Below are positions 37,751 through 61,536 of a stretch of DNA of 64,000 nucleotides, piece after piece; the stretch's first letter is position 1; every line of letters begins with the position of its first letter. The translations under genes and the position numbers were made by a program. This DNA is from Dehalococcoidia bacterium (GTDB taxonomy: Bacteria; Chloroflexota; Dehalococcoidia; Lucifugimonadales; G965248475): NCBI GenBank assembly GCA_965248475.1, contig OZ252106.1, positions 1,775,640 to 1,839,639 of the forward strand. Reading direction: 5' to 3'. Under the pieces are notes generated by a model that did no database searches, was not told the origin of the DNA, and saw only the letters and a program-made list of their open reading frames with translations.

Positions 37751-37914
37751 TTCCCACCCACCCGCCCTCGAAATGTTTAGATTTAGGGAGGACACCTCCT
37801 CCGACTTTGTCCCGACATATCGGGATGAGCGAAGTGCCGACTCGGTCGAGCACTCGCGATGGAATCGGAGCATCATCGGACCTCAGACTCCCCGGCAGGA
37901 AACCTAGGTTTCCT
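37751..37914 (-). repeat. composite palindromic repeat element, copy B (core 37807-37885)
   Basis: Reverse complement of copy A. Includes the palindromes AGGGAGGACACCTCC, GTCCCGACATATCGGGAT and AGGAAACCTAGGTTTCCT. Confidence 0.85.
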
Positions 37915-37974: not shown

Positions 37975-38110
37975 TGGTTTTGGCCCACCCACCTGCCCTC
38001 GGACTGCATCCATACCGTAGGGGCGAGGTCACCTCGCCCCTACGACCCCTCACCAGATTCTTCGCTGCGCCCAGAATGGCGTGAAGCGTTTAGCAGGGCA
38101 CGCCCTGCTG
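37975..38110. repeat. cluster of further REP-like hairpins
   Basis: Contains cccacccacctgccctcgg, CGTAGGGGCGAGGTCACCTCGCCCCTACG (38016-38044), ccagattcttcgctgcgcccagaatg, and AGCAGGGCACGCCCTGCT (38092-38109). Confidence 0.7.
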
Positions 38111-44888: not shown

Positions 44889-45806
44889 ATGACCGAGCAT
44901 ACCGTTCCAACCAAGGCAGAGGTGGAGTCCTACCTGCGGGACCGCCGTAACTGGGGACGCTGGGGAGACAAGGGCTCGGCAGGAGCGATAAACCTGATTA
45001 CGCCTGAGAAGCGCCGGGCGGCTGCGGCCCTGGTGCGATCGGGACGGACTGTATCGCTGAGTCGCCCGTTCCCGGTTACGCCATCCGTAGAGAACCCGCA
45101 GCCAGCACAGCACTTCATGATGAAGAACGATAGGCCCGGCGGATGGGGGTCAGCAACGGACTACTACGGCATACGGTACCACGGCGTAGCTACAACGCAC
45201 ATAGACGCCCTCTGCCACATGTGGAACGCCGACGGTATGTGGGACGGACGGGACCCGGACGACACCATCACATTCAACGGCTCTACCTACGGAACCATTG
45301 ACCAGTGGAGCGACGGCATATTGACTCGCGGCGTACTCCTGGACGTGCCGAAACACAGGGGCAGGCCGTACGTGACGCTGGAGGAGCCGGTCCAGGGCTG
45401 GGAGTTGGATGAGATCGTCAGGGGGTCAGGAGTAACGCTGGAGCCGGGTGACGCCATAATGGTATACAGCGGTCGGGAGGCGTACGCACAGGACCACGAC
45501 GGCGCCTGGGGAGGCCGTCCGGAGCGGGCGGGCCTCCACGCCTCATGCCTGCCATTCATCCGCGACAACGACATATCAATACTGGGTTGGGATATGATGG
45601 ACGCCCAACCCAACGAGTACGACATGCCGTGGTCCGTGCACGCCGTCCTATTCACCTACGGCGTGGCACTACTGGACAATGCGCTGCTCCAGCCCCTGGC
45701 AGAAGCGTGCGCCCAGGAGGCCACATACGAATTCATGCTTACGATCAACCCATTGAGGGTCATAGGAGGCACAGGGTCGCCGGTGAACCCCATCGCTGTA
45801 TTCTGA
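44889..45806 (+). CDS. cyclase family protein (kynurenine formamidase-like)
   Basis: AAGGGAGG RBS. RNWGRWG...GAINLITPE and HIDALCHMW motifs. Confidence 0.85.
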   Translation: MTEHTVPTKAEVESYLRDRRNWGRWGDKGSAGAINLITPEKRRAAAALVRSGRTVSLSRPFPVTPSVENPQPAQHFMMKNDRPGGWGSATDYYGIRYHGVATTHIDALCHMWNADGMWDGRDPDDTITFNGSTYGTIDQWSDGILTRGVLLDVPKHRGRPYVTLEEPVQGWELDEIVRGSGVTLEPGDAIMVYSGREAYAQDHDGAWGGRPERAGLHASCLPFIRDNDISILGWDMMDAQPNEYDMPWSVHAVLFTYGVALLDNALLQPLAEACAQEATYEFMLTINPLRVIGGTGSPVNPIAVF

Positions 45807-45815
45807 GTATTCTGA
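45798..45815 (+). repeat. 2 x 9-bp tandem duplication GTATTCTGA spanning the cyclase stop codon
   Basis: Direct reading gtattctga gtattctga, immediately followed by a REP half-site. Confidence 0.9.
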
Positions 45816-45834
45816 GTTTGAAACCCGCCCCTAC
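45816..45834 (+). repeat. REP family C half-site (GTTTGAAACCCGCCCCTAC)
   Basis: Right arm of the GGGCGGGTTTGAAACCCGCCC palindrome, 15 nt upstream of the RAYT-1 start. Confidence 0.8.
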
Positions 45835-45849
45835 AAAATGTGCAATGCC

Positions 45850-46383
45850 ATGGCATACGACCCAGACAGACACCACCGACGTTCCATCCGGCTACCCAGA
45901 TATGATTACAACCAGGCAGGTGCGTATTTTCTCACTATCGTTGCATATGATAGGCAATGCGCCTTCGTCGACATCGTAGATGGGAACATGGCGGTGAACA
46001 GATACGGGCAGGTTGTGTCAGACGGTTGGGATGATCTGGTAAACCACTATCCACATGTTGCCCTAGACTCATTTGTGGCCATGCCCAACCATATACATGG
46101 AATCATTGTATTGAATGACGAGGTATGGGCGGGTTTGAAACCCGCCCATACCAAACGTCACCCTCTGTCGGAGATCGTTCGTGGATTCAAGACCTTCTCA
46201 TCACGACGCATAAACCAGATACGCAACACCCCAGGTCTGCCGGTATGGCAACGCAACTACTATGAGCACGTGATCCGCAGCGAAGACGAAATGGACGGCA
46301 TCCGCCAGTATATTCTCGACAATCCTTTGAAGTGGCCCAAGGACGAAGAGAACCCTCAAAATGTCCAGAAAATGCCATCGTAG
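45850..46383 (+). CDS. REP-associated tyrosine transposase-like (IS200/Y1 HUH family), copy 1
   Basis: HUH motif MPNHIHGII and catalytic-Tyr region WQRNYYEHVIR. Paralogous to 48192-48725. Confidence 0.85.
   Translation: MAYDPDRHHRRSIRLPRYDYNQAGAYFLTIVAYDRQCAFVDIVDGNMAVNRYGQVVSDGWDDLVNHYPHVALDSFVAMPNHIHGIIVLNDEVWAGLKPAHTKRHPLSEIVRGFKTFSSRRINQIRNTPGLPVWQRNYYEHVIRSEDEMDGIRQYILDNPLKWPKDEENPQNVQKMPS
46123..46151 (+). repeat. 29-bp REP family C palindrome inside the RAYT-1 coding sequence
   Basis: gtatgggcgggtttgaaacccgcccatac has 14-nt perfect arms and encodes VWAGLKPAHTK. Confidence 0.9.
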
Positions 46384-46396
46384 GGGCGGGTTTGAA
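46381..46396 (+). repeat. REP family C half-site overlapping the RAYT-1 stop codon
   Basis: taggggcgggtttgaa. Confidence 0.75.
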
Positions 46397-47231: not shown

Positions 47232-48122
47232 ATGGAGCAGAGACTTCAATACAGATGCGATTCCGAGGACCTGTGGCTCAAGGTGGGGGACATGGACATG
47301 CACTACCTGGACTGGGGCGGCACCGGTGAGCCGGTTGTGGCGCTGCACGGGCTAGCTTCCTCATGCCACTGGTACGACCTGGTCATCCCATACCTTACGG
47401 ACAGGTTCAAGCTCGTGGCACTGGACCAGCGCGCCCACGGCCAGACGGAGCAGCCATCCACAGGCTACGACTGGGACACCCTGGCCGGAGACGTGGTGGC
47501 GGCACTCGACCAACTGGGGCTTGAACGCGCCGCAATCTTAGGCCACTCCTGGGGAGCAAGCGTCGCCCTTTCAGTAGCAGCCCTTCACCCTGACCGTGTG
47601 AGTGCGCTGGCCCTGATTGACGGAGGGTTCGGCGCAGGCCCCCGCTCCCCGGATATGACGTGGGAGGACTTCAAGGCACGACTAAGCCCGCGCGACATCT
47701 ACGGCCCGGCTGGTCGGTACCTCGGCGCACTCCAAAGGCAGTTCGACCACTGCTGGTGCAACGAGTTGGAGCATATGGTTATGTCCATGGTGGGCATAAA
47801 TCCCGATGGCACGACGTACGAGCGGCTGCAGCCAGAGAACCACGAGCAGGTCCTGTGGGCTATGTGGTCTGACCCCACCTCACAGAAGCTTCCCCAGGTA
47901 CAATGCCCCACAATCTTGGTCGCGGCAGAGCGCCGCCCACGTGATGGTAACGAGGAGTTTCTCAGGCGCAGGCAGGAACAGGTCAGCGCCGCCCAGGCGA
48001 TCATTCCGAACTGCCAGGTGGCCTGGATAGCGGACTCCAGCCACGATATAGGGTACGAGAAGCCCAAAGAGCTGGCGGACGTGCTGGCGAGCTTCCTGAG
48101 CAACAAGGCAACACGCATTTAG
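47232..48122 (+). CDS. alpha/beta hydrolase
   Basis: HGLASS oxyanion region and GHSWGA nucleophile elbow; 296 aa. Confidence 0.85.
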   Translation: MEQRLQYRCDSEDLWLKVGDMDMHYLDWGGTGEPVVALHGLASSCHWYDLVIPYLTDRFKLVALDQRAHGQTEQPSTGYDWDTLAGDVVAALDQLGLERAAILGHSWGASVALSVAALHPDRVSALALIDGGFGAGPRSPDMTWEDFKARLSPRDIYGPAGRYLGALQRQFDHCWCNELEHMVMSMVGINPDGTTYERLQPENHEQVLWAMWSDPTSQKLPQVQCPTILVAAERRPRDGNEEFLRRRQEQVSAAQAIIPNCQVAWIADSSHDIGYEKPKELADVLASFLSNKATRI

Positions 48123-48147
48123 GGACGGGTTTGAAACCTATCCATAC
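48119..48147 (+). repeat. REP family C, degenerate copy overlapping the hydrolase stop
   Basis: ttagggacgggtttgaaacctatccatac. Confidence 0.7.
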
Positions 48148-48153
48148 TCCCCA

Positions 48154-48173
48154 GGGCGCGGTTACCGCGCCCC
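48154..48173 (+). repeat. GGGCGCGGTTACCGCGCCC hairpin (a further REP type)
   Basis: 8-bp GC arms, located between the REP C copy and the RAYT-2 start. Confidence 0.6.
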
Positions 48174-48191
48174 TACGAGAGGTCATGGTCT

Positions 48192-48725
48192 ATGGAATAC
48201 GCCCCCAGCAAACACCGTCGCCAATCCATTCGTCTACCCGGATATGGCTACAGCCAAGCCGGAGCGTATTTTGTCACTATCTGCACACGAAACAGGCAAT
48301 GCTTATTCGGAGAGATCCTGAATGAGGAAATGGTACCGAGCAAGTATGGGCAGATTGTATTAGACGGCTGGTATGATTTGGCAAGCCACTATCCACATGT
48401 TGCCCTAGACTCATTCGTGGTCATGCCCAACCATATACATGGCATCATTGTATTGAATGACAATGTAGGGGCGGGTTTGAAACCCGCCCCTACCAAACGC
48501 CACCCATTGTCAGAGATCGCTCGTGGATTCAAGACCTTCTCATCACGTCGCATCAACCAGATCAATAGCACGCCCGGCTTACCTGTATGGCAACGCAACT
48601 ATTATGAACACGTAATCCGCAATGAAGACGAAATGGACCGCATCCGGCAGTACATTCTCGGCAATCCTATGAAGTGGCTGGAGGACGAGGAGAATCCTCA
48701 GAATATCCAGAAAGTACGTTCATAG
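48192..48725 (+). CDS. REP-associated tyrosine transposase-like (IS200/Y1 HUH family), copy 2
   Basis: MPNHIHGII and WQRNYYEHVIR. The central 100 nt are nearly identical to copy 1. Confidence 0.88.
   Translation: MEYAPSKHRRQSIRLPGYGYSQAGAYFVTICTRNRQCLFGEILNEEMVPSKYGQIVLDGWYDLASHYPHVALDSFVVMPNHIHGIIVLNDNVGAGLKPAPTKRHPLSEIARGFKTFSSRRINQINSTPGLPVWQRNYYEHVIRNEDEMDRIRQYILGNPMKWLEDEENPQNIQKVRS
48465..48493 (+). repeat. 29-bp REP family C palindrome inside the RAYT-2 coding sequence
   Basis: gtaggggcgggtttgaaacccgcccctac encodes VGAGLKPAPTK. Confidence 0.9.
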
Positions 48726-48729
48726 TCAT

Positions 48730-48753
48730 GAGGCGGGTTTGAAACCCATCCTG
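48730..48753 (+). repeat. REP family C, degenerate copy just after the RAYT-2 stop
   Basis: gaggcgggtttgaaacccatcctg. Confidence 0.7.
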
Positions 48754-48797
48754 TAACGTGGACACGGGCCAACCCGCCTTGCGCCGCATCATGGGGC

Positions 48798-59664: not shown

Positions 59665-59728
59665 ACCTCCTTCTGCTTACGCAAGGCACAATACTACAAC
59701 GCTAGCCCCCCACATTAGGCCTCCGTAA

Positions 59729-59748
59729 GGGCAATTCATGAATTGCCC
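59729..59748. promoter_or_regulatory. perfect 20-bp palindrome GGGCAATTCATGAATTGCCC in a divergent promoter region
   Basis: Direct reading. A TATAAT box lies at 59787-59792, downstream toward the oxidoreductase gene. Confidence 0.4.
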
Positions 59749-59829
59749 CTCTAGCTAGCCGAGTTTTTAGGCAGAGCCGGGGTAGGCTATAATACTACCT
59801 TCCACAGCATCCTATCACGAGAGGTTAGC

Positions 59830-61406: not shown

Positions 61407-61489
61407 TTCCCACCCACCCGCCCTCGAATGTTTATGAGATAGGGAGGACACCTCCCTAAAACCCTCCAGCAGGAAACCTAGGTTTCCTG
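61407..61489 (-). repeat. composite repeat element, core-less copy D
   Basis: ttcccacccacccgccctcgaatgttta + AGGGAGGACACCTCCCT + CAGGAAACCTAGGTTTCCTG. Same order and orientation as copy B but without the 79-nt core. Confidence 0.8.
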
Positions 61490-61536
61490 CACCATCCCGT
61501 CTTTCAGTCGAGTCTCTGGGACACGGCCGTTTCTAG

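Follow-up and report, generated by a model that had tools for sequence, protein, structure and literature searches.

Quentin, Siguier, Chandler and Fichant (2018; BMC Genomics 19:475, PMC6006769) have sorted the Y1 HuH proteins into classes. Among these, the TnpA-REP subclass 2.4 is the RAYT group 4 defined by Bertels et al. (2017) and is characterized by the motifs NH[IFV]H, WQ and YIxNNP. Its REPs are of the 'double foot' kind, with GT[AG]G at the 5′ end and C[TC]AC at the 3′ end, and its genes predominantly carry a REP inserted in frame into the β3–αC loop, which lies between HuH and Y. The same study modelled this loop as a peripheral extension lying away from the DNA-binding and catalytic sites, considered that it would probably have little impact on the activity, and read the insert as tolerated (PMC6006769). 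More generally, a GTAG-type REP is defined by the GTAG tetranucleotide at the foot of a GC-rich palindrome of 20–40 nt, and REPs are known to occur in frame within many unrelated genes (Di Nocera et al. 2013, PMC3733652).

In our search of the literature, the in-gene REP layout was found in Quentin et al. 2018 alone and was not mentioned in Nunvar 2010, Bertels 2017, Di Nocera 2013 or Corneloup 2021; the same search found no paper that tested the function of the subclass 2.4 in-gene REP. This element has so far been described and not explained. It bears on two questions: how REPs and their domesticated transposases remain matched over long periods, and what role RAYTs have in the cell. We analysed a 64-kb window (the whole stretch of DNA that was analysed) from an uncultured genome. 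In each RAYT gene of this window, the loop that connects the HUH strand (β3) with helix αC contains a single copy of the gene's own 'double-foot' GTAG REP, and this copy is read through in frame.

Two predicted RAYT genes of subclass 2.4

The window contains two co-oriented open reading frames that share 74% amino acid identity and are the sole RAYT genes of this 2.4-Mb single-contig genome:

45838..46383, + strand, RAYT1: ORF of 181 aa, predicted Y1 HUH transposase-like protein of the TnpA-REP subclass 2.4 type
48192..48725, + strand, RAYT2: ORF of 177 aa

Both passed the gathering cutoff (23 bits) of the Pfam model PF01797 Y1_Tnp, RAYT1 with 23.3 bits and RAYT2 with 25.3 bits. Against the NCBIfam equivalog model NF047646 (REP_Tyr_transpos) they scored 66.7 and 69.7 bits, respectively, and did not reach the curated cutoff of 80; judged from these scores, both are related to the model but lie outside its equivalog boundary. 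The HuH motif, NH[IFV]H on β3, is found as PNHIHGII in both ORFs, and the region of WQ and the catalytic tyrosine as VWQRNYYEH. The residues H81 and H83 of the former and W133, Q134 and Y137 of the latter are invariant in the alignment of homologs. The YIxxNP-type motif reads YILGNP in RAYT2 and YILDNP in RAYT1. We modelled RAYT2 with AlphaFold2, giving a 67-sequence alignment as input, and obtained a confident structure (pLDDT 88.5). In a Foldseek search with this model, the top PDB match was the E. coli TnpA-REP with REP bound (4ER8; E 7e-8), followed by the IS200/IS605 TnpA structures.

Because the motifs NHIH, WQ and YIxxNP, the match to Pfam Y1_Tnp and the 4ER8-like predicted fold all point the same way, RAYT1 and RAYT2 are, on sequence and modelling grounds, RAYT/TnpA-REP enzymes of subclass 2.4 (RAYT group 4), predicted to bind and cleave their REPs as single-stranded DNA.

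A perfect hairpin is read in frame in both genes

The original prediction had placed a perfect 29-bp palindrome in frame between the HUH and Tyr motifs of each gene. We confirmed both:

46123..46151, no strand assigned, internal in-frame hairpin 1, GTATGGGCGGGTTTGAAACCCGCCCATAC: inside RAYT1, with the foot GTAT/ATAC and not GTAG/CTAC
48465..48493, no strand assigned, internal in-frame hairpin 2, GTAGGGGCGGGTTTGAAACCCGCCCCTAC: inside RAYT2, a 'double-foot' GTAG REP whose peptide VGAGLKPAPT forms residues 92–101

Each hairpin is 29 nt long and consists of a perfect 14-bp stem with one central base; in hairpin 1 the pairing reaches out to 46122–46152. They are situated between PNHIHGI (HUH) and WQRNYYEH (Tyr), directly after the HUH strand (HIHGIIVL) and ahead of LSEI(V/A)RGFK. 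The chance expectation of the 21-nt core in the window was 0.00 (100 shuffles). The encoded peptides are VWAGLKPAHT in RAYT1 and VGAGLKPAPT in RAYT2. In the peptide (W/V)GAGLKPA(H/P)TK given earlier, the variable residue W/V needs correction to W/G. The RNA of the sense strand was predicted to fold strongly in both regions (−26 to −33 kcal/mol, z = −4.9 to −7.1). As the stem has no downstream T-run, we ruled out that it is an intrinsic terminator within the RAYT gene.

In the AlphaFold2 model, residues 89–105 of RAYT2 form a coil between the HUH strand (81–88) and a helix (106–125), and the mean pLDDT falls to 54 over residues 91–100. The original prediction had proposed to ask whether the insert is a surface loop; by this model, it is predicted to be an unstructured one.

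Hairpins 1 and 2 differ by one base pair (two paired positions), in which both sides have changed, so that the pairing is compensated. At the protein level both changes are nonsynonymous and radical (G to W and P to H). When we applied the foot of the GTAG-type REPs (Di Nocera 2013), hairpin 2 was found to have it as GTAG...CTAC, whereas hairpin 1 has GTAT...ATAC and lacks this foot. With RAYT1 having no canonical GTAG foot on either strand, selection or correction for pairing would fit this hairpin better than selection for recognition.

Flanking copies and other hairpins of the genome

From the surroundings of the two genes and from a scan of the window for hairpins, we recorded the following elements (no strand assigned):

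45816..45834, half REP upstream of RAYT1, GTTTGAAACCCGCCCCTAC: loop and right arm
46380..46396, half REP at the 3′ end of RAYT1, GTAGGGGCGGGTTTGAA: left arm and loop; its foot gives the TAG stop at 46381–46383
48120..48147, degenerate REP upstream of RAYT2, TAGGGACGGGTTTGAAACCTATCCATAC, of the same (LK) type: the upstream hydrolase gene ends in its TAG (48120–48122)
48150..48176, second-type REP just upstream of RAYT2, GGGCGCGGTTACCGCGCCC plus CTAC foot: 'GAVTAPL' type, from the window hairpin scan
48729..48756, degenerate LK-type REP just downstream of RAYT2: strongly diverged in the orthologous contig L099
38017..38043, perfect GTAG REP between genes, GTAGGGGCGAGGTCACCTCGCCCCTAC: 'GEVTSPL' type, belonging to the ~10-copy family GGGGCGAGGTSACCTCGCCCC
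59729–59748, AIHELPL-type core: from the window hairpin scan

The palindrome inside the genes had also been said to flank them. Its type is indeed present beside both, not as the same intact element: RAYT1 is bracketed by complementary half copies and RAYT2 by degenerate full copies. Placed end to end, the two half hairpins of RAYT1 would restore a single complete REP, as the junction of a circle would. Immediately ahead of the upstream half (region 45798–45834), a 9-bp tandem duplication (GTATTCTGA ×2) repeats the stop codon of the preceding gene. We also observed that the REP foot supplies stop codons, as the TAG of RAYT1 and that of the upstream hydrolase lie in (G)TAG feet. Likewise, in at least four homologs (loci L024, L025, L028 and L032), a full REP core begins 3 nt past the last sense codon and the stop of the RAYT gene is the TAG of the REP.

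The LK-type hairpin is rare in this genome. We counted two internal copies, one perfect extragenic copy (at genome position 547473, with one inner pair compensated), one imperfect extragenic copy (at 981212) and four half or degenerate copies adjacent to the genes. A high-copy, mostly extragenic REP family in the sense of Di Nocera 2013 was not found for the LK type in this genome, and with a handful of copies genome-wide this candidate was dropped.

Other hairpins of the form GTAGGGGC...GCCCCTAC are present in the genome without a matching RAYT. Three such orphan GTAG-REP families with no cognate RAYT in the genome are GGGGCGAGGTSACCTCGCCCC (~10 copies), GGGCGCGGTTACCGCGCCC and GTAAGGGCAATTCATGAATTGCCCC, represented in the window at 38017–38043, 48150–48176 and 59725–59752. 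Among the further hairpin families previously listed for the window, GEVTSPL (38017–38043) and GAVTAPL (48150–48176) were recovered; the ARHAVPL type is absent from the 64 kb, its peptide and hairpin being found in the homologs L026 and L043. The most frequent perfect palindrome of the genome is GCAGGAAACCYAGGTTTCCTGC, with nine identical copies and variants (37897–37914 and 61469–61490 in the window). This palindrome lacks a GTAG foot and does not look related to the hairpins of the RAYT genes.

Homologs conserve the loop as a DNA palindrome

The RAYT family is very large, with at least 7996 proteins at E ≤ 1e-5 among 8000 candidates scored. In 118 of the 120 closest proteins the hairpin-encoded peptide follows the HUH motif; it has the exact form GAG[LF]KPAPT in 85 of the 120, and 25 have two or more copies of the peptide. 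We fetched 80 loci from many phyla and analysed 82 genes at the nucleotide level. The loop DNA, between the HUH strand and the next helix, was cut out from the protein alignment, and a hairpin score of at least 11 was taken as strong.

A strong loop hairpin was obtained for 54 of the 82 genes, mostly with perfect 14-bp stems and a length of 28–29 nt. These hairpins share a constant outer stem, GTAGGGGC/GCCCCTAC, and have inner stems that vary among clades, always by paired changes (for example GGTTCGCGAACC, ACGTTGCAACGT, ACGGCATGCCGT, GAAAAATTTTTC and AATTCATGAATT). The median best-hairpin score was 14 for the loop, 6 for the remainder of the same genes and 5 for the loop after shuffling of synonymous codons, and for 42 of the 54 strong loops the observed score was matched by none of 200 synonymous shuffles. 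Almost all stem pairs (644/662) of the 54 hairpins are Watson–Crick, with four G·T and six A·C; within these 662 pairs, an excess of G·U on the sense strand, sought as a sign of selection at the RNA level, was not found. The unpaired central base can be G, C, A or T, which results in an alternation of L and F in the peptide (78 AGLKPA versus 49 AGFKPA).

The same hairpin can be translated in different ways. In L026 and L043, GTAGGGGCACGGCATGCCGTGCCCCTAC yields VGARHAVPL, and in L029 it yields GRGTACRAPT; GTATGGCCATAC is likewise found in two frames. Frame 2, in which the foot would read as a TAG stop, is not used among the hairpins of the sampled homologs.

Conservation of the peptide was therefore rejected, since a single hairpin can serve two reading frames and the signal disappears when synonymous codons are shuffled. 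What is conserved is the DNA palindrome, to which the translated decapeptide is incidental. The expectation that homologs would have palindromic codons at this position has thus been borne out by compensatory changes, by the use of two frames and by the loss of the hairpin upon synonymous shuffling (mean 5 versus median 14). In annotation, VGAGLKPAPT, RGGSRTAPT, VGARHAVPL and similar peptides in 'transposase' matches should be taken as translated REPs.

The length of the loop ranges from 7 to more than 100 residues among the homologs. In P0013, P0017, P0055, P0099, L061, L064 and L076 it is expanded by tandem repeats of partial arms (for example, repeats of DNVGAGFNP and of TLRRAPT), adding ~120 residues at most, in a pattern that looks like slippage at the palindrome.

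The internal hairpin and the REPs outside the gene are of matching type

The core of the internal hairpin was found again, with ≤ 2 mismatches, in the ±6-kb flanks of 24 of the 54 loci, usually within ~100 nt of the gene; in the cross-locus control, 53 of 2498 pairs (2%) gave such a match. G002, a complete genome, has six RAYT paralogs whose internal hairpins all differ from one another, and each of these six types also occurs outside the genes. We compared 21 genomes in a 2 × 2 test. Extragenic copies of the GGTTCGCGAACC type were present in 7 of the 10 genomes having a RAYT of this type and in 1 of the 11 having an LK-type RAYT (Fisher p = 0.0075), and those of the LK type in 9 of 11 own-type genomes and 5 of 10 other-type genomes.

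The copy numbers of the REPs are modest, 1–70 per genome in the other genomes, counts on which the incompleteness of the MAGs bears. The most abundant REP type need not be the internal one: another type dominates in G004 and G005, and G001 has one RAYT and at least three REP families. A one-to-one match with the dominant REP family was rejected on the basis of these three genomes. The co-variation with the dominant REP family of the host that had been proposed thus holds only loosely: the internal type matches the flanking and genomic REPs, but the dominant family is a different one in G004 and G005, and the type is rare in the genome studied here. In 5 of the 21 genomes the internal copy is the sole copy found, and it is still perfect; several of these five are incomplete MAGs.

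The hairpin descends with its gene

We built a protein tree from 149 columns, excluding those of the loop, and observed that the hairpin type tracks the protein clade with few exceptions. Only a few types were seen in two frames or in two clades. Within a type the frame is constant: the GGTTCGCGAACC hairpins are in frame 1 in 11 of 11 cases and the LK-like ones in frame 0 in 17 of 17. Such constancy speaks for descent together with the gene and against re-insertion time after time, and the idea of a freely swappable module is not supported by this comparison, the hairpin being mostly co-inherited.

The identity of the hairpin core is 0.96 and 0.90 within the two clades, whereas 4-fold degenerate sites elsewhere in the gene are identical at 0.32 and 0.29 (saturated) and the amino acid identity is 0.59 and 0.57. 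With a core at 0.90–0.96 against ~0.3 at 4-fold sites, the hairpin is the best-conserved DNA in the gene. Taken together, the sequences show a hairpin that is passed on along with its gene and stays in one frame within a clade; its only changes are compensatory pairs, and its type is that of the adjacent and genomic REPs.

In about one-third of the homologs, the hairpin is degenerate or missing. It is absent in L014, L022 and L040, reduced to one arm in L007 and split in L008; as all five are inside the LK clade, these are secondary losses. Intact-looking genes are among them (L014, L022 and L040 without the hairpin, L008 with a split one), and the internal hairpin is therefore not essential. 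Conversely, copies with premature stops retain perfect hairpins, namely L001 and L057, whose in-frame stops come early, and the L099/L100 orthologs. Perfection can thus outlast the gene, or else the breaks are recent.

The metagenome contigs L099 and L100 are orthologous to the RAYT2 locus, with nucleotide identities of 88.5% and 93.5% to the window. In their RAYT2 ortholog (L099:502-849, L100:222-569), codon 51 has changed from TAT to the stop TAA. Divergence is strong in all three flanking REPs of these contigs (7/28 positions, 3/23 positions and an indel-ridden downstream copy), and the internal hairpin differs from that of RAYT2 at the central base only; this comparison alone does not isolate the hairpin, because good conservation extends over the entire central part of the gene. 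The two paralogs form a mosaic at the nucleotide level. Codons 56–125 are 87–96% identical, third positions included, and the N-terminal third is ~60–70% identical. This pattern suggests gene conversion between RAYT1 and RAYT2, which are 2.3 kb apart, across the central part containing the hairpin.

Possible functions of the internal hairpin

We propose that purifying selection may act on the nucleotide sequence of the internal copy because this copy is the hairpin that the enzyme itself recognises. While the gene is single-stranded, during replication or in the transcription bubble, either strand could extrude a GTAG-footed hairpin to which the RAYT would bind. The result would be a resident 'master' REP, invariably passed on together with its enzyme, and most likely also a cis site by which the RAYT protein senses or limits its own gene. 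Because of the strong sequence conservation, the constancy of the frame and the persistence without other copies, we favour purifying selection on the hairpin as a recognition site (a resident master copy and/or a cis-regulatory site), and put its chances at about even. A further reading goes beyond this and is offered more tentatively: the hairpin might be a selected cis copy of the substrate instead of a tolerated insert, bound by RAYT in its own gene or message for autoregulation, and a protected 'master' REP might seed the REP family of each lineage and keep it matched to the enzyme.

A REP that once landed in a permissive surface loop could also be a passive passenger, tolerated there as Quentin et al. 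2018 (PMC6006769) read it and kept perfect by mutational mechanisms and not by function. These could be template-switch 'quasipalindrome correction', in which one arm is copied onto the other, or conversion with paralogs or extragenic REPs filtered by RAYT recognition. Much of what we observed is compatible with such a history: the low-confidence coil of the AlphaFold2 model, the in-frame REPs of many unrelated genes (PMC3733652), the intact-looking genes in which the hairpin has decayed or gone, the pseudogenised copies in which it is perfect, the conversion-like mosaic of codons 56–125 and the partial-arm expansions of many homologs. Arm-to-arm correction would also yield the compensated GTAT/ATAC foot of RAYT1. 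However, such correction preserves pairing and not sequence, yet the core is 0.90–0.96 identical across phyla at saturation of the synonymous sites. Conversion would need a donor, and 5 of 21 genomes yielded no extragenic copy of the type; repeated re-insertion is spoken against by the constant frame within types. Moreover, an occupancy of 54 to ~65 of the 82 genes at one loop of one gene family is far above that of random tolerated insertion. We regard the passenger, the main rival reading, as somewhat unlikely.

That the 14-bp GC-rich stem acts in the transcript, without RAYT binding, by slowing the ribosome, by protecting from or exposing to RNase, or by keeping the transposase output low, we consider improbable, even though the predicted RNA fold is strong (−26 to −33 kcal/mol). 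REPs act as stabilisers of mRNA 3′ ends, and IS200 tnpA is repressed by mRNA hairpins (discussed in PMC3733652), which by analogy might lend this role some support. But a role in RNA alone would not need a palindrome that is strictly symmetric including both feet, and the sense strand shows no G·U-compatible excess (4 G·T vs 6 A·C in 662 pairs); further, the primary sequence is conserved and not the pairing alone, and no T-run follows the stem to make it an intrinsic terminator. A specificity cassette at the peptide level, with the encoded decapeptide contacting DNA and setting which REP is recognised, had been raised as well and would account for the correlation of hairpin type, and hence peptide, with protein clade and REP family. 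This is by far the hardest to sustain, as one DNA hairpin gives unrelated peptides in two frames, its central base is free (L or F), and the loop varies from 7 to >100 residues, is a low-confidence coil and was modelled away from the DNA-binding and catalytic sites (PMC6006769).

If the hairpin is indeed a selected cis copy, a subclass 2.4 RAYT gene would physically carry its own recognition site in its reading frame under purifying selection. Its conservation, its frame and the tracking of clade and REP type turn the 'tolerated insert' into a testable claim of function. Since the loop peptide is unconstrained, the palindrome could be recoded away without harming the protein, and this would offer a clean experimental handle on RAYT regulation and REP seeding.

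Comparison with known systems

In the E. coli REPtron (TnpA-REP YafM, PDB 4ER8; Nunvar 2010, Ton-Hoang 2012, Messing 2012), the enzyme has the same fold, with HUH and Tyr, and its gene is flanked by GTAG-footed hairpins that it binds and cleaves as single strands. The E. coli enzyme belongs to subclass 2.2, however; its β3–αC loop is short, six residues (PEGDDD) without an internal REP, and its REPs are single-footed and bulged. The intragenic REPs and Rickettsia palindromic elements (Di Nocera et al. 2013, PMC3733652) are likewise short GC-rich palindromes read in frame, in loops or linkers of intact proteins. Those elements reside in unrelated host genes at idiosyncratic sites, whereas here the host gene encodes the REP's own enzyme, and the site is one and the same loop throughout the subclass, with a sequence that is conserved across phyla.

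IS200 tnpA offers a looser parallel, as it is also a Y1 transposase gene with a stable stem-loop in its transcript, which by analogy could limit expression here. Its hairpins, in contrast, are in the 5′ UTR and the terminator and not in the ORF, and they are not copies of the DNA substrate of the enzyme.

The closest relatives are the subclass 2.4 genes themselves (PMC6006769). RAYT1 and RAYT2 share with them the motifs, the double-foot REPs and the in-frame REP in the β3–αC loop, and, like the present genes and their homologs, the members are ~180–195 aa long and scattered over many phyla. The two genes have each of the sequence features that we tested, and so their in-gene REP layout is one already published; they do not differ in kind and are new members of the subclass from an uncultured genome that is probably of the Chloroflexota. 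What our analysis adds to PMC6006769 is the conservation at the sequence level, the constancy of the frame, the reading of one hairpin in two frames and the quantified matching of types between the internal hairpin and the REPs outside the gene.
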